A stretch of 64,000 nucleotides of DNA from Escherichia coli (GTDB lineage: Bacteria > Pseudomonadota > Gammaproteobacteria > Enterobacterales > Enterobacteriaceae): NCBI RefSeq assembly GCF_044324875.1, contig NZ_CP172185.1. One strand, 5' to 3'. Position numbers and translations under genes: made by a program. Position 1 is the first letter of the stretch. The number at the start of each line of letters is the position of its first letter. Under the pieces are notes generated by a model. The model saw only the letters and a list, made by a program, of their open reading frames with translations. It was not told the origin of the DNA and did no database searches. Positions 3,499 to 34,889 of the stretch are shown piece by piece.

Positions 3499-4164
3499 TT
3501 AACTCGCCTGCAAAGCGTTGATTTCAGATTTATCTGCCAGTCTTTTCAACAGCATATTGAGTAATACGCCATACATTGGCAGGAAGAAAACGATACTGAT
3601 TAACACTTTGAAACAGTAATCGACCAGCGCGATTTCCATCCAGTGTTCAGCCATAAAGGCATCGGGGCTACGCCAGAAGGCAATGAAGAAGAAGGCCAGT
3701 GTGTCGCTGACGTTACCGAACAGTGTGGACGCTGTCGGTGCCAGCCACCAGCGGCGACTCTGACGCAGGCGGTTAAAAACGTGCACGTCGAGGATCTGGC
3801 CCAGCGCGTAGGCCATGAAACTGGCGGTGGCGATACGGGCGACAAACAGGTTGAAGTGAGCGAGTGCGCCGAATCCCTGCCAGGAGCCCATATAGAACAG
3901 CGACGAGATGACGTAGGAGATCAGCAACGCCGGGATCATCACCGCAAAGATGATACGACGGGCCAGCGGTGCGCCAAAAATACGCACAGTCAGGTCGGTA
4001 GCAAGGAAAATAAACGGAAAGCTAAACGCGCCCCATGTGGTATGGAAACCAAAAATGGAGACGGGAAGCTGAACCAGATAGTTACTGGAGGTGATCACCA
4101 GAAGATGAAATAACGATAACCAGAACAACGCCTTATAGCGTTGCGTTTGCGAGAAAACGTTCAT
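3499..4164 (-). CDS. yhhQ: queuosine-precursor transporter YhhQ family membrane protein
   Basis: 221-aa hydrophobic ORF, conserved neighbour of tusA. Confidence 0.8.
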   Translation of the reverse strand: MNVFSQTQRYKALFWLSLFHLLVITSSNYLVQLPVSIFGFHTTWGAFSFPFIFLATDLTVRIFGAPLARRIIFAVMIPALLISYVISSLFYMGSWQGFGALAHFNLFVARIATASFMAYALGQILDVHVFNRLRQSRRWWLAPTASTLFGNVSDTLAFFFIAFWRSPDAFMAEHWMEIALVDYCFKVLISIVFFLPMYGVLLNMLLKRLADKSEINALQAS

Positions 4165-24216: not shown

Positions 24217-25287
24217 ATGGCAGGACTGAAATTACAGGCAGTAACCAAAAGCTGGGATGGCAAAACCCAGGTCATTAAACCGCTGACCCTTGATGTGGCG
24301 GATGGCGAATTTATCGTGATGGTCGGGCCGTCTGGCTGCGGGAAATCGACGTTATTGCGAATGGTGGCCGGACTGGAGCGGGTAACGACGGGCGATATCT
24401 GGATCGACCGCAAGCGTGTCACCGAAATGGAGCCGAAAGATCGCGGGATTGCGATGGTGTTCCAGAACTACGCGCTCTATCCGCATATGAGCGTAGAGGA
24501 GAATATGGCGTGGGGGCTGAAAATTCGCGGCATGGGCAAGCAACAAATTGCCGAACGTGTTAAAGAAGCGGCGCGCATTCTGGAGCTGGACGGCCTGCTT
24601 AAGCGCCGCCCGCGTGAGCTATCTGGCGGTCAGCGTCAGCGTGTGGCGATGGGGCGTGCGATTGTGCGTGAGCCGGCAGTGTTCCTGTTTGATGAGCCGC
24701 TCTCTAACCTCGATGCCAAGTTGCGTGTGCAGATGCGTCTTGAACTGCAACAGCTGCACCGTCGCCTGAAAACGACTTCACTCTACGTTACCCACGATCA
24801 GGTTGAGGCGATGACGCTCGCCCAGCGAGTAATGGTGATGAACGGCGGCGTTGCCGAACAGATTGGCACGCCAGTTGAAGTGTACGAAAAGCCCGCCAGC
24901 CTGTTTGTGGCGAGTTTTATCGGCAGTCCGGCGATGAATCTGCTGGCAGGGCGTGTGAATAACGAAGGTACGCATTTCGAACTGGACGGCGGTATCGCGC
25001 TGCCGCTAAACGGTGGCTACCGTCAGTATGCCGGGCGTAAAATGACTCTCGGCATTCGCCCGGAACATATAGCGCTAAGCTCGCAGGCAGAAGGCGGCGT
25101 ACCGCTGGTGATGGACACGCTGGAGATCCTCGGCGCTGATAATCTGGCGCACGGACGCTGGGGCGAACAGAAGCTGGTGGTTCGGCTGGCGCATCAGGAG
25201 CGCCCGACAGCAGGCAGCACGCTGTGGCTGCATCTGCCAGAAAATCAGCTGCATCTTTTTGATGGTGAAACAGGACAACGAGTATGA
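24217..25287 (+). CDS. ugpC: G3P ABC ATPase UgpC
   Basis: Walker [18 protein letters not shown]; start at MAGLKLQAV. Confidence 0.9.
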
Positions 25288-26027
25288 GTAACTGGCCTTA
25301 TCCCCGCATCGTCGCCCATCGTGGCGGCGGTAAACTGGCCCCGGAGAACACCCTGGCAGCAATCGACGTCGGGGCAAAATACGGTCATAAGATGATCGAA
25401 TTTGACGCGAAGTTATCGAAAGATGGCGAGATCTTCCTGCTCCATGACGACAATCTTGAACGCACCAGCAACGGCTGGGGCGTCGCGGGCGATCTGAACT
25501 GGCAGGATTTACTGCGCGTGGATGCAGGCAGTTGGTACAGCAAAGCGTTTAAAGGTGAGCCGCTACCGTTGCTTTCGCAGGTGGCGGAACGCTGTCGCGA
25601 ACACGGGATGATGGCGAATATCGAAATCAAACCCACCACTGGCACCGGGCCATTAACGGGCAAAATGGTGGCGCTGGCGGCACGCGAACTGTGGGCCGAT
25701 ATGACGCCGCCGCTGCTGTCATCGTTTGAGATTGATGCTTTAGAAGCTGCACAACAGGCTGCACCGGAACTGCCGCGCGGTTTGTTGTTGGATGAGTGGC
25801 GCGACGACTGGCGAGAACTGACCGCGCGACTGGGCTGCGTCTCTATTCATCTCAATCATAAGTTGCTTGATAAAGCGCGAGTGATGCAGTTGAAAGACGC
25901 CGGATTACGGATTCTGGTTTATACCGTCAATAAACCCCAGCGCGCGGCAGAGTTGCTGCGCTGGGGCGTGGATTGCATCTGCACCGATGCGATTGACGTG
26001 ATTGGTCCGAACTTTACGGCCCAATAG
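25284..26027 (+). CDS. ugpQ: glycerophosphodiester phosphodiesterase UgpQ
   Basis: 247 aa, GDPD-family motifs ([14 protein letters not shown]). Confidence 0.9.
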
Positions 26028-26454
26028 TTTTCAACGGTATATCAGGCTGCGGCGTGCTGGGCTGATTCAGCATGTCGCCGTTTCTCCTCTCCGGCAACAT
26101 ATGCTGCTGATTCAACGAACTATCCGGATTACGGTTGCTGTTTAACATCCCGCCGTTGGTATTGGGCAGCATTTGCTGCCGGGCGGGATTTCGCTCCCCC
26201 GGCTGTGACTGCAACACCCGCTGAGAATTATTGTTTATCTGGTTTTCTAAATGCTGTTGTTGCAACTGAGTTTGCGTTTTCAGTTGCTGATTCAGCATCC
26301 CTTTTTGCTGGATTTGCTGCGTCTGCATTTGAGTCTGCATCCGCTGCTGACTGGGGATCTGATACCCCGGCTGGTTAGGGTTGTTCAGAGTATTAATGGG
26401 CTGTGCAAAGCCGACAAACGGCAGGAGTGCCGTAAGAATCAGAAGTCGTTTCAT
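26014..26454 (-). CDS. yhhA: Gln/Asn-rich secreted protein YhhA
   Basis: 146 aa, signal peptide then Q-rich low-complexity repeats. Confidence 0.75.
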
Positions 26455-26573
26455 CGCGTATCCTCCTCTGAAGATATTCTTTAAGTTTACTCCTTTCCTG
26501 CAATCATCAGGATTAATTCAGAGTTATATACCAGGCTTAGCTGGGGTCGCCCCTTAATCTCTGGAGAATAACG

Positions 26574-28316
26574 ATGATAAAACCGACGTTTTTACGCCGG
26601 GTGGCCATTGCTGCTCTGCTCTCAGGAAGTTGTTTTAGCGCCGCCGCCGCGCCTCCTCCGCCACCTGTTTCTTATGGCGTGGAGGACGATGTCTTTCATC
26701 CGGTACGCGCGAAACAGGGGATGGTGGCGTCTGTAGATGCTACTGCCACTCAGGTGGGGGTGGATATCCTCAAGGAGGGTGGGAATGCCGTTGATGCCGC
26801 CGTGGCGGTGGGCTACGCGCTGGCGGTAACGCATCCGCAGGCAGGGAATCTGGGCGGTGGTGGTTTTATGCTGATCCGCTCGAAAAATGGCAATACCACC
26901 GCTATCGATTTCCGCGAAATGGCACCCGCCAAAGCGACCCGCGATATGTTCCTCGATGACCAGGGCAACCCGGACAGCAAAAAATCACTCACTTCGCATC
27001 TGGCCTCCGGTACGCCAGGTACGGTCGCAGGTTTCTCGCTGGCGCTGGAGAAGTACGGCACCATGCCGTTAAATAAAGTGGTGCAGCCGGCGTTTAAACT
27101 GGCACGCGATGGTTTTATCGTTAATGACGCGCTGGCTGACGATCTCAAAACCTACGGTAGCGAAGTGTTGCCGAATCACGAAAACAGCAAGGCTATCTTC
27201 TGGAAAGAGGGCGCGCCGCTGAAAAAGGGCGACAAGCTGGTGCAGGCGAACCTGGCAAAGAGCCTGGAGATGATTGCCGAAAACGGCCCGGACGAATTCT
27301 ACAAAGGCACGATAGCGGAACAGATTGCCCAGGAGATGCAGAAAAACGGTGGCTTGATCACTAAAGAAGATTTAGCGGCGTATAAAGCGGTCGAACGTAC
27401 ACCGATTAGCGGCGATTATCGCGGGTATCAGGTTTACTCCATGCCACCGCCATCTTCCGGCGGGATCCATATCGTACAAATCCTCAATATTCTGGAAAAC
27501 TTCGATATGAAGAAATACGGCTTTGGCAGCGCCGACGCGATGCAAATCATGGCAGAAGCTGAGAAATATGCCTACGCCGACCGCTCGGAATATCTTGGCG
27601 ACCCGGATTTTGTCAAAGTTCCGTGGCAGGCGCTGACCAATAAAGCCTATGCCAAATCTATTGCCGATCAAATCGATATCAATAAAGCGAAGCCATCCAG
27701 CGAAATTCGCCCCGGCAAGCTTGCGCCTTATGAGAGTAATCAAACTACCCATTACTCAGTGGTGGATAAAGACGGCAACGCGGTAGCGGTGACCTATACG
27801 CTGAACACCACCTTCGGGACGGGCATTGTCGCGGGCGAGAGCGGTATTCTGCTTAATAACCAGATGGATGATTTCTCCGCCAAACCTGGCGTACCGAACG
27901 TTTACGGGCTGGTGGGTGGTGACGCCAACGCGGTCGGGCCGAATAAACGCCCGCTGTCGTCGATGTCCCCAACCATTGTGGTGAAAGACGGTAAAACCTG
28001 GTTAGTGACTGGTAGCCCAGGCGGTAGCCGGATCATCACTACCGTGCTGCAAATGGTGGTGAACAGCATCGATTATGGTATGAATGTCGCCGAAGCGACC
28101 AATGCACCGCGTTTCCACCATCAGTGGTTGCCGGACGAACTGCGCGTCGAGAAAGGATTTAGCCCGGATACGCTCAAGCTGCTGGAAGAAAAAGGTCAGA
28201 AAGTAGCGCTGAAAGAGGCGATGGGCAGCACACAAAGCATTATGGTTGGGCCGGACGGCGAGTTGTACGGCGCATCCGATCCGCGCTCGGTGGATGATTT
28301 AACGGCGGGGTATTAA
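26574..28316 (+). CDS. ggt: gamma-glutamyltranspeptidase
   Basis: 580 aa with signal peptide and catalytic Thr motif region (NNQMDDFS...TTHYSV). Confidence 0.9.
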   Translation: MIKPTFLRRVAIAALLSGSCFSAAAAPPPPPVSYGVEDDVFHPVRAKQGMVASVDATATQVGVDILKEGGNAVDAAVAVGYALAVTHPQAGNLGGGGFMLIRSKNGNTTAIDFREMAPAKATRDMFLDDQGNPDSKKSLTSHLASGTPGTVAGFSLALEKYGTMPLNKVVQPAFKLARDGFIVNDALADDLKTYGSEVLPNHENSKAIFWKEGAPLKKGDKLVQANLAKSLEMIAENGPDEFYKGTIAEQIAQEMQKNGGLITKEDLAAYKAVERTPISGDYRGYQVYSMPPPSSGGIHIVQILNILENFDMKKYGFGSADAMQIMAEAEKYAYADRSEYLGDPDFVKVPWQALTNKAYAKSIADQIDINKAKPSSEIRPGKLAPYESNQTTHYSVVDKDGNAVAVTYTLNTTFGTGIVAGESGILLNNQMDDFSAKPGVPNVYGLVGGDANAVGPNKRPLSSMSPTIVVKDGKTWLVTGSPGGSRIITTVLQMVVNSIDYGMNVAEATNAPRFHHQWLPDELRVEKGFSPDTLKLLEEKGQKVALKEAMGSTQSIMVGPDGELYGASDPRSVDDLTAGY

Positions 28317-28353
28317 GGTTAGCGGCCCTCTTCGTGGGAAGAGGGCCGTATTG

Positions 28354-28638
28354 TCAGGGCAAGCCGAAGGTAGCCTTTTTTATTTCATAATCCTGTAGAT
28401 ATTCTTCCAGCGGCTTTGCCGTTCCAAGGGAATGAATTTCACCACTGTCTTTATCAATAATAAAAGGTGCGTTACCGGCTAAGCGCGCGGCCTCATCACC
28501 AGATTCAAGAAATTCTTGTGATTCGAAACAGAAATACCAGCCCTGGCTAAAACGTCCATGCAGAGTGATGACGACAGGGAGATCTGCATCATCAAGGTAA
28601 TGGTTCGCTTTCGCGAATGCGTCGTGATAAGTAATCAT
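28354..28638 (-). CDS. yrhB: YrhB (94-aa protein reported as a small heat-stable chaperone)
   Basis: ORF MITYHDAFAKANHYLDD... recognised from memory as YrhB. Confidence 0.7.
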   Translation of the reverse strand: MITYHDAFAKANHYLDDADLPVVITLHGRFSQGWYFCFESQEFLESGDEAARLAGNAPFIIDKDSGEIHSLGTAKPLEEYLQDYEIKKATFGLP

Positions 28639-29087
28639 AATTATAATAAATATTATTGTTGAACGTTATATTATTATTCTTGCGTTATACTTTGAGAAAA
28701 GGCGTGTTCATCTTCGTCAAAGATATTATTAAATGCTGGTTTTGAAAAAAGTTCATCGGATAATATACAGTCACGAAATAAGTATCTGCTAATATTTTGT
28801 GATTTCTTTTTCAGAACGTCGAACGGGATTTTCTTATTTAAGATATCAGAATCTTATGATTCGGGTGAAATTCTAACTAAATCAACATGTCACTAAAATC
28901 ATCATAGCCATTAGCTATTTCGGCTAAAATAGAGATTACATGTCTTCGGTCCATCTCACTTAAGGAGTGTAGTTCCGTTGTAAGTTTTTCCATAGCTTGC
29001 ATTGCTAAGTTTCGAACAAGGAATTTTCTGCTGGTAATCTCTAAAAAGATGGCATGGTTTACAATGATTTTTGTTATCTTTTGATTA

Positions 29088-29582
29088 TTATGAACAACTG
29101 TCCATGATTTCGTTTAAGAATGAAGAGAAATCACTAAACGAACTGAATATATTTTCGGTGCCAATATTATCTCTAATTTCAAAAAAGTTATTTTTAATGT
29201 CATAAGTAAATATTGAAATGCTATCATCCCCGATCACTAACCGTTCTTGTAGATCAGGGTTTATGAAATCATCATTATTTCTATAAAATTCATTTACGGT
29301 AAAAAGGTTTTTAACTGAAGGTTCTGGAATCGAGAGGCTAAATAATCGTAATCCATTAACTTCGAATCCATCCATTGCTCTTAAAAAAGTAAGATAATCA
29401 GGTTGATTCTTAAAAAGAATACTAACTTCATTACATAACTTCTCCAGGCAATTAGTTGAATTAGAATTAAATTCTATTTGGATTATACTTTCAATAAATG
29501 ATTCCTTGAGCGGTGCTTCAAATGGATAGTCTAAATCATTCATCATTTTTTTTAATTTATTTATTTGGGTTTTAGTCATCAT
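29088..29582 (-). CDS. yrhA: YrhA, putative immunity protein for the YhhZ nuclease toxin (intact in this sequence)
   Basis: 164-aa ORF whose start overlaps the yhhZ stop (ATGA); AT-rich; toxin/immunity-type arrangement. Confidence 0.65.
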   Translation of the reverse strand: MMTKTQINKLKKMMNDLDYPFEAPLKESFIESIIQIEFNSNSTNCLEKLCNEVSILFKNQPDYLTFLRAMDGFEVNGLRLFSLSIPEPSVKNLFTVNEFYRNNDDFINPDLQERLVIGDDSISIFTYDIKNNFFEIRDNIGTENIFSSFSDFSSFLNEIMDSCS

Positions 29583-30757
29583 TTTGTGGGTTCCATAATA
29601 TTTTTCATGGGAGGATAAATTGAGCCAGATGGAATGGCCCAGGGAGTGATTTTGCTTTCACCTACTAATATTCCCTTAGCTATTCGTGATTGCATGTTAG
29701 TAAAAACTTTATGATATGGTTCGTTTTCGATTAATACTAAATTTTCGAAATCATTAGTACCACCATCATCTAGAGATAGTTTATGGTGAACATTATAATT
29801 TAGAGGAACATTGCCCTTTCTCATTCTTAAAAGGTCTTCGGCGTTGAATCTTCCAGATGCTTCGGAGGTTTTTGCAAGTTTGATAAGAAAATTTTTTCTT
29901 ACAGTTTTATTAAACTCCTTTCGTAAGTTAGCTAAGTCTTTTGAAGGTCTCTTAATGTATATTATTTCTATTATGTCTATACCATCAAGAAGTTTTTGTT
30001 GACCTCTAAGTTTGCCTAAATAACTATTTATTTCTGTATATGTATCAACATTAGAACGCTTTGTTAAAAGAATAGATGCTGTTGCTATCGCTATGCCCGC
30101 TGTTTTTTCATTTAGTATTTGATCATAGCCTTTTATTGCATCTCCACCCAGTTTTTCCGCAGTATCTCTGAATCCTTCAATGTTCCCATTGTATACGCCA
30201 CCAGCAGCAAGTAGCCTGCCAATAGCTTTGCTGTTTAACGTTTTGAAACGATTATTTGTTTGGTTTTTTGAATTTGGTAAAAACAAACGGTTATAATTTT
30301 CAGGGAGTGCCAAATAGCTGAACTCGGTATTTGCGATAAGATGTTGACAGAGGATAAATTCATAACTAACAGTTATTGTTTCTGTATCCAGTTGATTTTC
30401 AATGATCTGATGATGAATAGCCGATAAAAAAGCGCCTCTTAGTTGTATATAATAATACTTTTCCCATCTACCAAATCTATTGATTCTATAAAAGTCAAAT
30501 TCCATAAATAATTGCTCATTATTGTTAATGGAATTAATAAGTAATGGAGTGCTTTTATCAATTAATTTACAAAATGTCATACCCTGTAACTGTGAACCAA
30601 GTCCCGTATTAGTAATTCTATTTGCGAGTGAGAATGTAAATATTTCATCCTCATGCCCACTCTGCCAGCGATTACCTATAGATTCAGTAGTCCCACAACC
30701 TGCGGAGATGTTTCCTTGTTGTTCTCCCGTTACTGTCAGGTAAACAATATTACTCAT
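29579..30757 (-). CDS. yhhZ: YhhZ: Hcp-domain protein with C-terminal HNH nuclease motif (Hcp-ET-type putative T6SS effector)
   Basis: N-terminal Hcp-like region; C-terminal NVHHKLSLDDGGTNDFENLVLIENEPYHKV HNH motif; low GC. Confidence 0.75.
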   Translation of the reverse strand: MSNIVYLTVTGEQQGNISAGCGTTESIGNRWQSGHEDEIFTFSLANRITNTGLGSQLQGMTFCKLIDKSTPLLINSINNNEQLFMEFDFYRINRFGRWEKYYYIQLRGAFLSAIHHQIIENQLDTETITVSYEFILCQHLIANTEFSYLALPENYNRLFLPNSKNQTNNRFKTLNSKAIGRLLAAGGVYNGNIEGFRDTAEKLGGDAIKGYDQILNEKTAGIAIATASILLTKRSNVDTYTEINSYLGKLRGQQKLLDGIDIIEIIYIKRPSKDLANLRKEFNKTVRKNFLIKLAKTSEASGRFNAEDLLRMRKGNVPLNYNVHHKLSLDDGGTNDFENLVLIENEPYHKVFTNMQSRIAKGILVGESKITPWAIPSGSIYPPMKNIMEPTK

Positions 30758-30959
30758 CCCTGAAAAGTCCTTTTATGGCATGCTATTTTATTAATGGCAC
30801 TATTATGCTTGTTAATTGTTATTTATTTACTCTAGGAAATTGTAGGCGTATATATTAATAATAAAATATTACACTTTAGGACGTAATTATGAGGTAAATC
30901 TCAATATATTTATTGGGCAAATAAATACATTAAAGGAAGATATGCCGATTTTGAATGAC

Positions 30960-30986
30960 GCCCTTTTTCCATCTCAGAAAAAGGGC
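30960..30986 (-). terminator. hairpin terminator downstream of yhhY
   Basis: Inverted repeat GCCCTTTTT...AAAAAGGGC. Confidence 0.5.
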
Positions 30987-30992
30987 ACTATC

Positions 30993-31481
30993 TTACTTCA
31001 CCCGTGCCATATAATACGCATCGACATATTCACCATTACGTAATGCGTACTTTTTGCCAGTCCCTTCAATCTCAAAGCCGAATTTTTTATAGACCTTAAT
31101 TGCTGGCGCGTTATCGACGAACACCGTTAGCTCAATACGATCTACCCGCAACCAGTTGTCGCACATTTCAATCATCTCTCGCATCAGGGCGCTGGCGACG
31201 CCGTGATTCTTCCAGCGGGCGTCGACACAGATACCAAAATCGGCAACATGACTGCGGCGCGGGCGTTGTTGCACGTCAATGGTGAGATGTCCTACGACGA
31301 TTCCATCAATACAGGCGACTAACTGCTTGATGCCGGGACGATCGGCGAGTCGCTCCTGCCACATATGATCGGAAGGATGAGGCACCTGTAGTGTGTTGCA
31401 ATACACCTCCGGCTGGGCGTGAATCTGCCTGATGGCCTCGTAATCGCGCGTTTCAGCATGGCGTATCACTATCTCACTCAT
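30993..31481 (-). CDS. yhhY: GNAT-family N-acetyltransferase YhhY
   Basis: Start at MSEIVIRHAETRDYEA inside ORF 30993..31559; GNAT motifs. Confidence 0.85.
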   Translation of the reverse strand: MSEIVIRHAETRDYEAIRQIHAQPEVYCNTLQVPHPSDHMWQERLADRPGIKQLVACIDGIVVGHLTIDVQQRPRRSHVADFGICVDARWKNHGVASALMREMIEMCDNWLRVDRIELTVFVDNAPAIKVYKKFGFEIEGTGKKYALRNGEYVDAYYMARVK

Positions 31482-31577
31482 TCCTTTGTCCTCTTTGGGG
31501 TAAATGTCCCTTTCAACATCATTGACTTTCAAATGCGAGTCAAATGCATTTTTTTGCAAAAAGTGTTGGACAAGTGC

Positions 31578-31600
31578 GAATGAGAATGATTATTATTGTC
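31578..31600 (+). promoter_or_regulatory. Fur box overlapping ryhB promoter
   Basis: GAATGAGAATGATTATTATTGTC resembles Fur consensus GATAATGATAATCATTATC, immediately upstream of RyhB +1. Confidence 0.7.
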
Positions 31601-31602
31601 TC

Positions 31603-31692
31603 GCGATCAGGAAGACCCTCGCGGAGAACCTGAAAGCACGACATTGCTCACATTGCTTCCAGTATTACTTAGCCAGCCGGGTGCTGGCTTTT
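31603..31692 (+). ncRNA. ryhB: iron-responsive small RNA RyhB
   Basis: GCGATCAGGAAGACCCTCGCGGAGAACCTGAAAGCACGACATTGCTCACATTGCTTCCAGTATTACTTAGCCAGCCGGGTGCTGGCTTTT matches recalled RyhB sequence; terminator hairpin plus T-run. Confidence 0.9.
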
Positions 31693-31814
31693 TTTTTGAT
31701 CTTTCGTTTTCAATTTATCCACGGGAAGTGCTTGTGTTCGTTATGCGCACTCCAGTAGGAACCACGTCCGCTTTGCGCTAAGGTATAAATAACCACCTTA
31801 AAAAGGACGAAATC

Positions 31815-32852
31815 ATGGTCATCAACTGCGCCTTTATTGGCTTCGGCAAAAGCACCACCCGTTACCATCTGCCGTATGTACTTAACCGCAAGGATAGCTG
31901 GCATGTCGCGCATATTTTTCGCCGCCATGCGAAGCCGGAAGAACAGGCTCCCATTTACTCTCATATCCATTTCACCAGCGATCTCGACGAAGTGCTAAAC
32001 GATCCCGATGTTAAGCTGGTTGTCGTCTGCACCCACGCGGATAGTCATTTCGAATACGCGAAACGCGCGCTGGAAGCCGGGAAAAATGTGCTGGTCGAAA
32101 AACCGTTTACTCCGACAATTGCGCAGGCGAAAGAGCTGTTTGCGCTGGCGAAAAGCAAAGGGCTGACCGTCACGCCGTATCAGAATCGTCGCTTTGATTC
32201 CTGCTTCCTGACGGCGAAAAGAGCGATTGAAAGCGGTAAGCTGGGAGAGATTGTTGAAGTGGAAAGCCATTTTGACTATTACCGCCCGGTGGCAGAAACC
32301 AAACCTGGGTTGCCGCAGGATGGCGCGTTCTATGGCCTTGGTGTGCATACGATGGACCAGATTATTTCTCTGTTCGGTCGCCCGGATCACGTCGCTTATG
32401 ACATCCGCAGCCTGCGCAATAAAGCCAATCCTGACGACACCTTTGAAGCGCAACTGTTTTATGGCGACCTGAAAGCCATCGTCAAAACCAGCCATCTGGT
32501 GAAAATCGATTATCCGAAATTTATCGTTCACGGTAAGAAAGGTTCGTTTATTAAATACGGTATCGACCAGCAGGAAACCAGCCTCAAGGCTAATATTATG
32601 CCGGGCGAACCGGGATTCGCGGCGGATGATTCGGTCGGTGTGCTGGAGTATGTCAATGACGAGGGTGTGACGGTCAGAGAAGAGATGAAGCCGGAGATGG
32701 GCGATTACGGGCGCGTTTATGATGCGTTGTATCAAACCATCACCAACGGTGCGCCAAATTACGTCAAGGAATCTGAAGTTCTTACCAATCTGGAAATCCT
32801 TGAACGAGGATTTGAGCAAGCCTCTCCCTCCACAGTGACTCTCGCGAAGTAA
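31815..32852 (+). CDS. yhhX: Gfo/Idh/MocA-family NAD(P)-dependent oxidoreductase YhhX
   Basis: 345 aa with N-terminal Rossmann motif (INCAFIGFGKS). Confidence 0.85.
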   Translation: MVINCAFIGFGKSTTRYHLPYVLNRKDSWHVAHIFRRHAKPEEQAPIYSHIHFTSDLDEVLNDPDVKLVVVCTHADSHFEYAKRALEAGKNVLVEKPFTPTIAQAKELFALAKSKGLTVTPYQNRRFDSCFLTAKRAIESGKLGEIVEVESHFDYYRPVAETKPGLPQDGAFYGLGVHTMDQIISLFGRPDHVAYDIRSLRNKANPDDTFEAQLFYGDLKAIVKTSHLVKIDYPKFIVHGKKGSFIKYGIDQQETSLKANIMPGEPGFAADDSVGVLEYVNDEGVTVREEMKPEMGDYGRVYDALYQTITNGAPNYVKESEVLTNLEILERGFEQASPSTVTLAK

Positions 32853-32974
32853 GTTTGATGGCCCCTCGAATAGTTCAATTTTTTTGAACAGAGGGGGCAA
32901 TTTTCACCCTCTATCATCCCAGGCGGATCGGGTCCACACTAAGCCCATCGAAATCATTCAGGGGGCGAATAAAA

Positions 32975-33670
32975 ATGATCTACTTACGCAAAGCAAATGA
33001 ACGTGGTCATGCAAATCATGGCTGGCTGGACTCCTGGCATACTTTCTCTTTTGCCAACTATTACGATCCGAACTTTATGGGCTTCTCCGCGCTGCGCGTG
33101 ATTAACGACGACGTGATTGAAGCAGGGCAGGGCTTCGGCACTCACCCGCATAAAGATATGGAAATTTTGACCTACGTGCTGGAAGGTACTGTTGAGCATC
33201 AGGACAGCATGGGCAATAAAGAGCAGGTTCCGGCGGGTGAGTTCCAGATTATGAGTGCGGGTACGGGTATTCGTCACTCAGAGTACAACCCAAGCAGCAC
33301 CGAGCGTCTGCATCTGTATCAGATCTGGATCATGCCTGAAGAAAACGGTATTACGCCGCGTTATGAACAGCGTCGCTTCGATGCCGTACAGGGCAAACAG
33401 CTGGTGCTCTCGCCGGATGCGCGTGATGGTTCGCTGAAAGTGTATCAGGATATGGAACTGTACCGCTGGGCGCTGGTAAAAGATGAGCAGTCGGTGCATC
33501 AGATTGCCGCTGAACGCCGCGTCTGGATTCAGGTGGTGAAAGGCAATGTCACCATTAACGGCGTGAAAGCCTCGACCAGCGATGGTCTGGCAATCTGGGA
33601 TGAGCAGGCAATCTCCATTCATGCGGATAGCGACAGCGAAGTGTTACTGTTCGATCTGCCGCCGGTTTAA
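32975..33670 (+). CDS. yhhW: pirin-like protein / quercetin 2,3-dioxygenase YhhW
   Basis: 231 aa, cupin His motifs (HPHKDMEILTYVLEG). Confidence 0.85.
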   Translation: MIYLRKANERGHANHGWLDSWHTFSFANYYDPNFMGFSALRVINDDVIEAGQGFGTHPHKDMEILTYVLEGTVEHQDSMGNKEQVPAGEFQIMSAGTGIRHSEYNPSSTERLHLYQIWIMPEENGITPRYEQRRFDAVQGKQLVLSPDARDGSLKVYQDMELYRWALVKDEQSVHQIAAERRVWIQVVKGNVTINGVKASTSDGLAIWDEQAISIHADSDSEVLLFDLPPV

Positions 33671-33893
33671 AACTCAACGGCATCTTTGAAGCCTGCCTTT
33701 TTGCAGGCTTCCTCACTCGCTCCGGTCGCGTGCTGATGTACGCTTCCGGGGTTTTGCCGCGTCGTTAGCACAATGCGATGCAATTGATTTAGTGTATATC
33801 TAATAATTGTAAACAAGCACTGTTTTCCCCGGGAAGGTTCTGATGCGTCCGTGTTAAACTAAGAGAATCTATCTCTTTTGTACCTTCAGGACG

Positions 33894-34889
33894 ATGAAAA
33901 AGAAAAGACCCGTACTTCAGGATGTGGCTGACCGTGTAGGCGTGACCAAAATGACGGTCAGCCGTTTTTTACGCAACCCGGAGCAGGTTTCCGTCGCTCT
34001 ACGCGGCAAGATTGCCGCCGCTCTTGATGAACTGGGTTATATTCCCAATCGCGCGCCCGATATCCTCTCTAATGCCACCAGCCGGGCGATTGGCGTCCTG
34101 TTACCTTCTCTCACCAACCAGGTTTTCGCGGAAGTATTACGCGGAATCGAAAGCGTCACCGACGCGCACGGTTATCAAACTATGCTGGCGCACTACGGTT
34201 ATAAACCGGAAATGGAGCAAGAACGCCTCGAATCAATGCTCTCATGGAATATCGATGGACTGATCCTCACCGAACGTACCCACACGCCACGCACCTTAAA
34301 GATGATTGAAGTGGCGGGGATTCCGGTGGTGGAGTTGATGGACAGCAAGTCGCCGTGCCTCGATATTGCCGTCGGTTTTGATAACTTTGAAGCGGCACGC
34401 CAGATGACCACCGCCATTATTGCTCGCGGGCATCGCCACATTGCCTATCTCGGCGCACGTCTCGACGAACGTACTATCATCAAACAGAAGGGATACGAAC
34501 AGGCGATGCTGGATGCAGGCCTGGTGCCGTATAGCGTGATGGTTGAGCAATCTTCTTCTTACTCTTCCGGTATTGAACTGATTCGCCAGGCGAGGCGGGA
34601 ATATCCGCAGCTGGATGGCGTGTTCTGTACTAATGATGACCTGGCGGTCGGCGCGGCGTTTGAATGCCAGCGTCTGGGGTTGAAAGTTCCTGACGATATG
34701 GCGATTGCCGGTTTCCACGGTCATGATATTGGTCAGGTGATGGAGCCACGACTGGCGAGCGTGCTGACGCCGCGTGAGCGGATGGGCAGTATTGGCGCTG
34801 AACGCCTGCTGGCGCGTATTCGTGGCGAATCTGTGACACCGAAAATGTTAGATTTAGGTTTCACCTTGTCACCGGGCGGATCTATTTAA
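33894..34889 (+). CDS. gntR: LacI-family gluconate repressor GntR
   Basis: 331 aa, N-terminal HTH (VTKMTVSRFLRNP) and periplasmic-binding-like domain. Confidence 0.9.
   Translation: MKKKRPVLQDVADRVGVTKMTVSRFLRNPEQVSVALRGKIAAALDELGYIPNRAPDILSNATSRAIGVLLPSLTNQVFAEVLRGIESVTDAHGYQTMLAHYGYKPEMEQERLESMLSWNIDGLILTERTHTPRTLKMIEVAGIPVVELMDSKSPCLDIAVGFDNFEAARQMTTAIIARGHRHIAYLGARLDERTIIKQKGYEQAMLDAGLVPYSVMVEQSSSYSSGIELIRQARREYPQLDGVFCTNDDLAVGAAFECQRLGLKVPDDMAIAGFHGHDIGQVMEPRLASVLTPRERMGSIGAERLLARIRGESVTPKMLDLGFTLSPGGSI

Follow-up and report, generated by a model that had tools for sequence, protein, structure and literature searches.

The ggt-yhhY islet of Escherichia coli: a very probable toxin-immunity locus with an Hcp-DNase effector (YhhZ), its immunity protein (YrhA) and a decayed immunity-gene array

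The AT-rich islet between ggt and yhhY in Escherichia coli raises the question of whether its genes yhhZ and yrhA are a secreted toxin and its immunity gene, and what the short sequences downstream of them represent. The window analysed is the whole 64,000 nt stretch of contig NZ_CP172185.1. An earlier note, made from the sequence of the window, placed the islet at positions 28320–30992, which is exactly the stretch bounded by the stops of ggt (28316) and yhhY (30993). This 2.7-kb interval has a G+C content of 0.318 compared with 0.507 for the whole window. The G+C profile, 0.29–0.35 across approximately 28600–31000 and 0.50–0.59 in ggt and yhhY, bears out the AT-richness relative to the flanking genes that had been described. 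The two genes named in the note, yhhZ (392 aa) and yrhA (164 aa), are present in the ORF list (Table 1). The note did not mention two other features of the islet, yrhB and a truncated yrhD.

Table 1. Features of the ggt-yhhY islet, with positions in the window
Feature	Position	Strand	Description and basis
yhhZ	29579..30757	(-)	392 aa, putative specialised Hcp effector (Hcp-ET1 type); ORF and identity to the O104:H4 allele
Hcp (TssD) domain of yhhZ, aa 1–147	30317..30757	(-)	NCBIfam, Pfam and solved Hcp chains
Linker/pre-toxin region of yhhZ, aa 148–243	30029..30316	(-)	Family alignment and model confidence
Predicted HNH/His-Me-finger DNase toxin core of yhhZ, aa 244–383	29609..30028	(-)	pLDDT and Foldseek
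Predicted catalytic beta-beta-alpha-metal motif, aa 322–356 (H324, H325, N335, N339, H349, Q356)	29690..29794	(-)	44-sequence alignment
yrhA	29088..29582	(-)	164 aa, putative cognate immunity protein (ETI1 type), predicted SUKH fold
yrhD region	28898..29080	(-)	Apparent remnant of a ~84-aa immunity-type gene; tblastn
Unannotated remnant	28677..28835	(-)	Apparently what is left of another immunity-type gene, of ~85 aa; tblastn
yrhB	28354..28638	(-)	94 aa, intact, putative orphan Imm35 immunity gene; Pfam
AT-rich intergenic region upstream of yhhZ	30758..30992	(-)	Presumed promoter region; G+C ~0.34
Perfect 10-bp G+C-rich inverted repeat between convergent ggt and yrhB	28324..28347	.	Read from sequence

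The inverted repeat between ggt and yrhB is a possible bidirectional terminator. A terminator scan of the islet reported no useful terminator, and the repeat went unreported because no T-run follows it. No outstanding sigma-70 site was found in a consensus scan upstream of yhhZ, and sigma-70-like sites in the islet are fewer than in shuffled sequence (10 vs 13.2). The K-12 promoters yhhZp5 and yhhZp7 are cited in PMC12428005.

YhhZ has an N-terminal domain of the Hcp/TssD family. The curated Hcp1 model, NCBIfam TIGR03344, matches residues 1–147 over its full length and well above its cut-off (E 2.6e-36, 125 bits, cut-off 58.9). Pfam T6SS_HCP (PF05638) matches residues 18–139 (E 2e-12), and the solved Hcp chains 3he1 (Hcp3, E 1.7e-12), 6a2v and 5mxn match the N-terminus with E values of 1e-11 to 1e-12. 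The Hcp-like domain had been proposed in the earlier note, along with HMM searches as a check, and TIGR03344, PF05638 and 3he1 all agree with it. The linker that follows is modelled with low confidence (pLDDT 36–72). Its part from approximately residue 172 onwards is shared with Hcp-fused and DUF8093-fused relatives but is not conserved in LXG, Rhs and PAAR carriers. The breakpoint between alternative Citrobacter alleles, at approximately residue 225, is inside this linker region. DUF8093 was considered as a divergent Hcp and was ruled out by an hhalign probability of 0.2% with clean sequence sets. The exact YhhZ sequence of the window is found on 368 public contigs.

The motif VHHKLSLDDGGTNDFENLVLIENEPYH, on which the C-terminal HNH nuclease had originally been proposed, represents YhhZ residues 323–349 (nt 29711–29791, minus strand). 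The six catalytic-motif residues listed in Table 1 are invariant in a 44-sequence family alignment with 35–65% identity. The core at residues 244–383 is predicted at pLDDT 88–98, and the model displays strands at residues 321–325 and 340–344 followed by a helix at 345–360, all with pLDDT > 95. The top Foldseek matches of the core are the DNases of pyocin S2, pyocin AP41 and colicin E7/E9, and Rhs2-CT, with a probability of ~1.0; 4qko, 4uhp, 1mz8 and 3fbd are among the entries matched. By its predicted beta-beta-alpha-metal fold with HH...N...H residues the domain belongs to the HNH/His-Me-finger nucleases. The invariant residues, the confident model and the bacteriocin matches all support the nuclease proposal, and they support a predicted HNH/His-Me DNase of the colicin/pyocin type. 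The Pfam matches are weak, with HNH PF01844 at residues 322–343 (E 0.013) and PF21431 (Col-Pyo_DNase) at E 1.9; among relatives, Pfam HNH is found in 10 of 60 at E ≤ 0.001 and in 56 of 60 at E ≤ 0.1.

The toxin core has relatives in 646 representative clusters at E ≤ 1e-3. In all 62 representatives examined (178–1,261 aa in length) the core ends 19 residues or fewer from the protein C-terminus. N-terminal partners among 60 full-length carriers are LXG (5), PT-TG (6), PAAR-like (2) and Hcp (3), with DUF4280, RHS and MuF also present. A C-terminal toxin, varied trafficking modules and a downstream immunity gene are characteristic of polymorphic toxin systems (Zhang et al. 2012), and all three are found here.

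Within ...ACA AAA TGA TGA CT..., the TGA that ends yhhZ overlaps the ATG that begins yrhA, giving ATGA, exactly as had been read from the sequence before. YrhA matches the NCBIfam 'YrhA family' NF038335 (E 3.9e-37), and its AF2 model has a pLDDT of 87.6 and a pTM of 0.85. The top five Foldseek matches are all SUKH/SMI1-KNR4 proteins, including YobK (2prv), SMI1/KNR4 (3d5p), Knr4 (6qbp) and 2icg. The Pfam SUKH and SMI1_KNR4 models did not match YrhA even at E ≤ 10, and no PDB sequence was picked up by a profile search, so that its assignment to SUKH relies on the fold together with the names that its relatives have in UniRef. Among the immunity proteins of HNH toxins, SUKH is the most frequent type (PMC3482391).

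Gene order provides additional support. A YrhA homologue is located 16–19 bp downstream of the toxin gene in C. koseri, Enterobacter and Franconibacter, and with Escherichia included the order of toxin followed by YrhA-type gene is conserved in four genera. Identities to the window toxin are 70, 67 and 58% in C. koseri, Enterobacter and Franconibacter, and those to the immunity protein are 69, 61 and 47%, i.e., the two fall together. The putative immunity function given to yrhA at the outset gains support from the predicted fold and from this conserved downstream position, and YrhA is best described as a predicted SUKH-fold immunity protein cognate to the YhhZ toxin.

The pair is not new. By sequence and locus, yhhZ/yrhA is the published effector-immunity pair Hcp-ET1/ETI1, already known, here under its K-12 names, and the Hcp-ET effector architecture assigned in the earlier note is this architecture. 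The O104:H4 alleles at ggt-yhhY share 95.9% (YhhZ) and 97.6% (YrhA) of their residues with those of the window, and they are the exact sequences named 'Hcp protein' (A0A1C9CJD7) and 'HNHc DNase immunity protein'; orthology follows from the same locus and near-identical sequence. YhhZ differs from its O104:H4 counterpart by 16 aa, 13 of which are in the Hcp domain (aa 16–130). Past the Hcp domain, and with residues 389–390 set aside, it is the same as K-12 and differs from O104:H4 only at residue 300. The pair of STEC004 and O104:H4 was reportedly described by Ma et al. 2017 (Virulence 8:1189). For O104:H4 C227-11 and 55989, a preprint describes Hcp-ET1 as an orphan Hcp whose C-terminus is of the HNH/colicin-DNase type, with ETI1 following it (bioRxiv 10.1101/2024.03.05.583533). 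DNase-based killing, protection by ETI1 and dependence on T6SS2 are reported in two reviews (PMC6730261, PMC6099711), and hexameric rings and T6SS secretion of Hcp-ET1 are reported second-hand.

Of 5,426 complete E. coli genomes, 3,767 (~70%) have the pair at this site, counted where 80% or more of its DNA lies together; the count concerns DNA presence and not open reading frames. It is nearly always a single chromosomal copy. In MG1655, IS1E (768 bp) splits yrhA after nt 390, so the IS1 that the earlier note gave for K-12 is correct, as is its statement that yrhA of the window is uninterrupted (164 aa). The uninterrupted gene is the normal E. coli state; the K-12 insertion is the exception, and the window strain is unremarkable in this respect. 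Among nine sampled alleles, with K-12 counted after removal of the IS1, yrhA is intact in all nine and yhhZ is a pseudogene in three. Decay of the toxin with retention of the immunity gene is the usual pattern for toxin-immunity pairs. Divergence within the islet is lowest in the toxin-linker-yrhA segment, where pi is 1.6–1.7% compared with 3–5% in the flanks. A recent transfer of this segment was considered and set aside: the low divergence is real, but nine alleles cannot separate recombination from purifying selection.

K-12 has an intact yhhZ, a split yrhA and no T6SS, and B strains also have no T6SS. It follows that the toxin is not lethal in K-12 at native expression. Either yhhZ may be silenced there, or the 130-aa YrhA fragment may still be protective. 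The K-12 reference labels yhhZ a 'putative endonuclease', yrhA a pseudogene of unknown function, yrhB a 'putative heat shock chaperone' and yrhD 'uncharacterized'.

The earlier note regarded the pair as an orphan effector module. This holds for the locus, as no T6SS structural genes are found among the ORFs of the 25000–34000 stretch, but it need not hold genome-wide. Strain 135, whose sequence is 100.0% identical to the window along 25 kb, with 2 mismatches in the 8,001 bases around the islet, has a T6SS cluster at tRNA-Asp (aspV). It carries tssA, B, C, E, F, G, H, J, K and M, the TssL homologue icmH/dotU, tagH, vasI, vasL and two hcp genes; vgrG is an annotated pseudogene beside IS and intron debris. 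The position and gene order are those of the O104:H4 cluster, termed 'T6SS2' in the STEC literature, with strong divergence between the two (identities of 55% for TssB, 76% for TssC and 57% for Hcp). This variant is present in only 552 of 5,426 complete E. coli genomes, compared with ~70% for the pair. A co-adaptation of the Hcp domain, with its 13 substitutions, to the T6SS of the lineage was considered; identities to the cluster Hcps differ by 1–2 points between alleles and the idea was dropped. By analogy with Hcp-ET1, YhhZ would be delivered by the T6SS in the window lineage. In an O157:H7 strain, a preprint reports a T6SS2 without antibacterial activity, and the ggt-yhhY islet is absent from an O157:H7 genome that was examined.

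Downstream of yrhA the islet appears to carry the traces of other immunity genes. The yrhD ORF is shortened to 38–41 aa by a TAG at 28877–28879, and yrhD is carried as an annotated pseudogene in strain 135. By tblastn the yrhD region is 41% identical over 61 aa (E 7e-13) to a gene of L019, a syntenic Citrobacter-like locus, where it is immediately downstream of an alternative Hcp-toxin, P0320. The second remnant has 43–46% identity over 46–53 aa (E ~1e-10) to 85/86-aa genes of L019 and a further locus, L020, and in L020 the homologue is immediately downstream of the Hcp-toxin P0368. Counterparts of both are intact at the same locus in Citrobacter, where alternative toxins are found on the same Hcp. 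The Citrobacter comparison resolves the yrhA-yrhB spacer into two separate small-gene remnants. A single larger ancestral gene across the spacer (a conceptual 111-aa product in two frames) was also sought; the search gave short E. coli fragments only, and the idea was rejected. NCBIfam gave no informative family for the small Citrobacter genes or the alternative toxins.

yrhB matches Pfam Imm35 (PF15567) at model positions 1–85 of 85 (E 1.4e-22) and is 72–73% identical to Imm35 genes of the Citrobacter arrays. In some E. coli it alone is kept at the ggt-yhhY site. Imm35 is associated with an adjacent papain-like Tox-PL1 toxin (PMC3482391). No such toxin is found beside yrhB in the islet, and no recognisable papain-like domain is found beside the Imm35 gene in the Citrobacter arrays; yrhB is classed as an orphan immunity gene because no Tox-PL1 toxin is adjacent. 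Judged from these homologies, yrhD and the unnamed fragment are remnants of immunity genes and yrhB is an orphan Imm35 gene.

Taken together, the islet is very probably a polymorphic-toxin locus on the chromosome, of the 'specialised Hcp' type, with YhhZ as an Hcp-DNase effector, YrhA as its immunity protein and a decayed immunity array. YhhZ would be an Hcp tube subunit with a flexible linker leading to a colicin/pyocin-type HNH DNase. As suggested by STEC Hcp-ET1, a few YhhZ subunits would join the T6SS Hcp tube and be fired into neighbouring bacteria, and the delivered nuclease would degrade DNA in the struck cells. Translation of yrhA would be coupled to that of yhhZ via the ATGA overlap, and YrhA would bind and block the nuclease in producer and kin cells. 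Earlier toxin cassettes would have left the array downstream of yrhA, i.e., two remnants and the intact orphan yrhB. The domain identities, folds, catalytic-residue conservation, toxin-immunity pairing and Hcp-ET1/ETI1 correspondence are computed here; the literature on Hcp-ET1 supplies the toxicity of the DNase, its neutralisation by ETI1 and its delivery by T6SS2, all of which would apply to YhhZ by analogy. The pair is presumably active in this particular strain.

The locus could instead be a silenced, decaying relic in this strain, its genes intact by descent and neither expressed nor deliverable, with only the immunity from yrhA and yrhB of use against other enterobacteria. The islet is very AT-rich, as xenogeneically silenced DNA of E. 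coli usually is. The relic is also consistent with the yhhZ pseudogenes beside intact yrhA in three of the nine lineages, the two immunity genes already reduced to remnants, the vgrG pseudogene of strain 135 and the tolerance of yrhA loss by K-12. It is nevertheless unlikely: yhhZ of the window is full-length with every catalytic residue present, the toxin-linker-yrhA segment has the lowest divergence, the 96%-identical O104/STEC allele is reported to be active, and PMC2907695 cites an earlier report of induction in biofilms.

Less likely still is a role without T6SS, either addiction of a toxin-antitoxin-like type or anti-phage defence, which would explain persistence in T6SS-negative E. coli such as K-12. 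The ~70% prevalence, set against the K-12 and B strains without T6SS, is in line with such a role, and the early comparative study PMC2907695 terms YhhZ an 'evolved Hcp not linked to T6SS function'. The full-length, high-scoring Hcp domain argues otherwise, as do the fusion of the toxin family elsewhere to secretion and trafficking modules (LXG, PAAR, Rhs), the T6SS2-dependent delivery reported for the O104/STEC allele, and the survival of K-12 with a disrupted 'antitoxin'. Anti-phage defence in particular was rejected, as no PADLOC defence model is matched by YhhZ, YrhA or YrhB. That YhhZ is merely a structural or chaperone Hcp variant with a degenerate, inactive HNH domain is hardly credible. 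All invariant family residues are present, the very confident predicted fold matches active DNases, a dedicated immunity gene is conserved alongside in four genera, and DNase-dependent killing is reported for Hcp-ET1 in the reviews; on the other side are the weak Pfam HNH match, Ser328 of E. coli YhhZ in place of a near-invariant Pro (present in at least 90% of the toxin family) and the description of the HNH domain as degenerate in PMC2907695. An Hcp-borne DNase with its own immunity gene is the preferred reading.

The YhhZ/YrhA feature is already explained, and the practical value of the analysis is in annotation. Tying the K-12 names to a toxin-immunity locus, and seeing an apparent trail of immunity genes in yrhB, yrhD and the unnamed remnant, corrects the present labels. 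One genomic-island paper gives the yhhZ/yrhA cluster a methionine-to-cysteine role, apparently through a mix-up with same-named Bacillus genes. A broader proposal, offered tentatively and about which doubt slightly prevails, is that ggt-yhhY is an old Hcp-toxin recombination hotspot in Escherichia and Citrobacter where toxin-plus-immunity cassettes are swapped at the conserved linker. The islet would then record earlier cassettes in yrhD, the second remnant and yrhB, and yrhD and yrhB of K-12 would really be immunity genes, relict or orphan. That the pair is so widely kept in T6SS-poor E. coli would reflect defence against Hcp toxins of Citrobacter and E. coli, and not attack. The site may also serve as a simple model locus in which to study how cassettes of Hcp-borne toxins are replaced.

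Among known systems, Hcp-ET1/ETI1 shares chromosomal locus, architecture and gene order with the pair of the window; one difference is that the genome near-identical to the window has a T6SS whose cluster is a diverged version of that in O104:H4. The DNases of colicins E7/E9 and pyocins S2/AP41 share the predicted HNH beta-beta-alpha-metal core with YhhZ, at 17–28% identity over ~80 residues, and also the logic of a non-specific DNase bacteriocin with a tightly linked immunity gene. They have receptor and translocation domains, whereas YhhZ has an Hcp fusion that would act through T6SS, and the colicins have a four-helix Im7/Im9 immunity fold in place of the SUKH fold predicted for YrhA. The second metal-binding His of the colicins (H-x3-H) is missing in YhhZ, where KVFTN follows H349. 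Within the SUKH superfamily, YrhA resembles B. subtilis YobK (2prv) and BF1740 (3d5p) in predicted fold (TM ~0.5, probability 1.0) and in its position directly downstream of a nuclease toxin, as in PMC3482391; it differs in having an NCBIfam family to itself, NF038335, and nearly all the homologues that were found come from Enterobacterales. The displaced 'orphan' modules of Rhs and CdiA differ in that the carrier at ggt-yhhY is Hcp and the E. coli islet shows immunity remnants only, no orphan toxin fragments having been seen in it. The likeness to them is in a conserved N-terminal delivery part with alternative C-terminal toxins at one locus, and in immunity genes and fragments that trail downstream.

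The islet lies on the E. coli chromosome, in the gap between ggt and yhhY. The gene order is ugpQ-yhhA-ggt on the plus strand, then yrhB, a truncated yrhD, yrhA and yhhZ, all on the minus strand, and then yhhY, RyhB and yhhX. The earlier note's observation on the islet is confirmed in every detail. G+C content is 0.29–0.35 inside the islet and 0.50–0.59 on both sides, and an ATGA read in the sequence is common to the yhhZ stop and the yrhA start. The IS1 interruption that the earlier note gives for K-12 is IS1E in MG1655, which splits yrhA after nucleotide 390; in the window yrhA is uninterrupted. The RyhB small RNA gene sits just beyond the islet edge. Positions 28324–28347, between the convergent ggt and yrhB stops, represent a perfect 10-bp G+C-rich inverted repeat, with no T-run after it. 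Judged from sequence, this repeat may be a candidate bidirectional terminator.

Features of the ggt-yhhY islet and of related cassettes (window positions unless a locus prefix is given)
Feature	Position	Strand	Remarks
Islet	28320-30992	.	exact gap, ggt stop codon to yhhY stop codon
yhhZ	29579..30757	-	ORF, 392 aa
yrhA	29088..29582	-	ORF, 164 aa
yrhB	28354-28638	-	Imm35 family
yrhD remnant	28898-29080	-	tblastn vs Citrobacter-like gene; cut short by TAG
Unannotated small-gene remnant	28677-28835	-	tblastn vs Citrobacter-like gene
RyhB small RNA	31632-31696	+	Rfam RF00057, 83 bits; between yhhY and yhhX
DUF8093-fused cassettes	L015:4001-5663, L017:4001-5648		DUF8093 = PF26362, ~168-aa N-terminal domain

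The proposed Hcp-like N-terminus of YhhZ is borne out: the first 147 residues match the NCBI Hcp1 model with 125 bits (cut-off 58.9), and the N-terminus also matches Pfam T6SS_HCP (E 2e-12) and the solved Hcp structures 3he1, 6a2v and 5mxn. The HNH nuclease motif noted at the C-terminus likewise holds, in that the catalytic residues are kept and both the model and Foldseek point to colicin/pyocin DNases. An older remark labels this HNH domain 'degenerate' (PMC2907695), and the match to the generic Pfam HNH model is weak, in line with that label. H324, H325, N335, N339, H349 and Q356 are invariant in an alignment of 44 sequences, where no loss of YhhZ catalytic residues is seen. The AlphaFold model of the core (pLDDT 88–98) has strands at aa 321–325 and 340–344 followed by a helix at aa 345–360; the linker (aa 152–240) has low model confidence. 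The top Foldseek matches of the core are the DNase domains of pyocin S2, pyocin AP41 and colicin E7/E9, and the Serratia Rhs2-CT endonuclease. Residue 328 (positions 29774–29776, minus strand) is Ser in HHKL-S-LDD, here as in the K-12 and O104:H4 alleles, and Pro in at least 90% of the toxin family.

An exhaustive search with YhhZ residues 152–392 gave 646 representative clusters, with a common core at residues 244–383. The 62 representatives examined, 178 to 1,261 aa long, all have the core ending 19 or fewer residues from the C-terminus. In 60 full-length carriers, Pfam finds LXG, PT-TG, PAAR-like, DUF4280, RHS, MuF and Hcp as N-terminal modules; such variety is what marks out a polymorphic toxin domain. 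DUF8093 replaces Hcp as the fusion partner of the linker-toxin-immunity cassette in Enterobacter, Leclercia, Franconibacter and others. There is no profile similarity between DUF8093 and Hcp, and no T6SS genes are found near the two DUF8093-HNH-YrhA-type loci in the table.

YrhA has no match in Pfam but is a member of NCBIfam NF038335. Its model (pLDDT 87.6) matches B. subtilis YobK, Bacteroides BF1740 (SMI1/KNR4), yeast Knr4 and Listeria 2icg by Foldseek; the modeled fold is SUKH. SUKH proteins are the commonest immunity proteins for HNH toxins (PMC3482391). The reading of yhhZ-yrhA as a toxin-immunity pair gains from this predicted fold and from the presence of a YrhA homologue directly after the toxin in three other genera, where its gene is 16–19 bp downstream. 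In Citrobacter koseri, Enterobacter and Franconibacter, respectively, YrhA identity is 69%, 61% and 47% and toxin identity 70%, 67% and 58%. The C. koseri pair occupies the same yhhY-ggt site.

YrhB is an Imm35 family protein by Pfam match, with no adjoining cognate toxin in the islet; its K-12 label is 'putative heat shock chaperone'. At the yhhY-ggt site of two Citrobacter-like stretches (L019:1369–4011 and L020:877–2992), other C-terminal toxins follow the same Hcp and linker. These proteins are P0320 on L019 (370 aa, with a candidate PD-(D/E)xK-like motif seen by eye) and P0368 on L020 (417 aa), and neither toxin domain has a match among Pfam or NCBIfam families. Downstream of each toxin gene come several 84–86-aa genes and an Imm35 gene, to which yrhB is 72–73% identical. 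The yrhD region has 41% identity over 61 aa to the gene directly downstream of P0320, and the unannotated remnant has 43–46% identity to the gene directly downstream of P0368. The yrhA-yrhB 'spacer' contains what is left of two small genes, both of which Citrobacter has in intact form at the syntenic locus. L020 and C. koseri, which has the HNH allele, share 92–96% nucleotide identity in the flanks and Hcp domain; beyond about residue 225, a point within the linker, the two are no longer similar. The simplest reading of these comparisons is cassette replacement at the linker: an HNH-yrhA cassette would have been placed ahead of older immunity genes, which, yrhB excepted, would have decayed since.

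The intact state is the norm for E. coli. In 3,767 of 5,426 complete genomes a single place contains 80% or more of the pair, a count of DNA presence and not of open reading frames. The ggt-yhhY site is polymorphic between strains: some have yrhB alone, others are empty, e.g., strain E2 with ~60 bp from ggt to yhhY, and in an O157:H7 genome one DUF4225-domain gene replaces the islet (L004:2351–3262). Among nine sampled alleles yrhA is open in all, K-12 being scored after IS1 removal, and three of the yhhZ copies (O145 RM12275-C1, APEC O2:K1 E19019 and AHB22) are disrupted by a frameshift or stop. K-12 is the reverse of these three, with the toxin gene intact and IS1 in the immunity gene. The window differs from O104:H4 by ~5% in the flanks and Hcp domain but by <1% over the toxin domain and yrhA. 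Against O104:H4 and K-12 alike the pattern of divergence is a mosaic, low at 29100–30370 and high at 28200–29080 (yrhB side) and 30370–31100; 13 of the 16 YhhZ amino acid differences are within aa 16–130. Over the nine alleles, pi is 1.6–1.7% in the linker, toxin and yrhA and 3–5% elsewhere.

The description of the pair as an orphan effector module stands in part. No T6SS structural gene is seen at 25000–34000, but strain 135 (chicken faeces, Guangdong) has a T6SS cluster elsewhere in its genome. This strain matches 25 kb of the window at 100.0% identity, with 2 mismatches in the 8,001 bases around the islet. The cluster is at tRNA-Asp (L007:7850–34346, record 1,327,849–1,354,345) and has tssB, C, E, F, G, J, K, H, A and M, icmH/dotU (a TssL homologue), tagH, vasI, vasL and two hcp genes. 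Its vgrG is annotated as a pseudogene/truncated; ISAs1 fragments and a group II intron lie downstream of it. Because strain 135 is near-identical, the source genome probably carries a T6SS also; delivery of this YhhZ allele by it is putative. The O104:H4 cluster has the same site and gene order, and it is this O104:H4 cluster that goes by T6SS2 in the STEC literature. The proteins of the two clusters have 55–91% identity (TssB 55%, TssC 76%, Hcp 57%), and the strain-135 variant is in only 552 of 5,426 genomes.

According to a preprint (bioRxiv 10.1101/2024.03.05.583533), Hcp-ET1 of O104:H4 C227-11 and 55989 is an orphan Hcp whose C-terminus is of the HNH/colicin-DNase type, with ETI1 next in order. 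Reviews state that it kills via DNase activity, is neutralised by its own immunity protein and requires T6SS2 (PMC6730261, PMC6099711). The O104:H4 alleles of the ggt-yhhY locus are residue-for-residue A0A1C9CJD7 ('Hcp protein') and A0A1C9CJE0 ('HNHc DNase immunity protein'), and YhhZ and YrhA of the window are 95.9% and 97.6% identical to them. The pair DNA is at 3,827 places in 3,812 E. coli genomes, all chromosomal; since it is essentially single-copy, Hcp-ET1 is the yhhZ orthologue. Among 20 listed papers naming yhhZ, none appears by title and abstract to be a T6SS-effector study, and the three bearing on its function do not use the name Hcp-ET1. A genomic-island paper gives yhhZ-yrhAB a role in methionine-to-cysteine conversion (PMC3309015), apparently a mix-up with same-named Bacillus subtilis genes. 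In MG1655, a spontaneous delta-yhhZ-yrhA deletion is reported from work on topA mutants (bioRxiv 10.1101/2024.10.07.617030). The earlier interpretation of YhhZ and YrhA is supported, and we infer that the pair is active in this strain. What the islet carries was known before: a T6SS-type Hcp-HNH effector with a SUKH immunity gene, intact, as is usual, and at the usual site.
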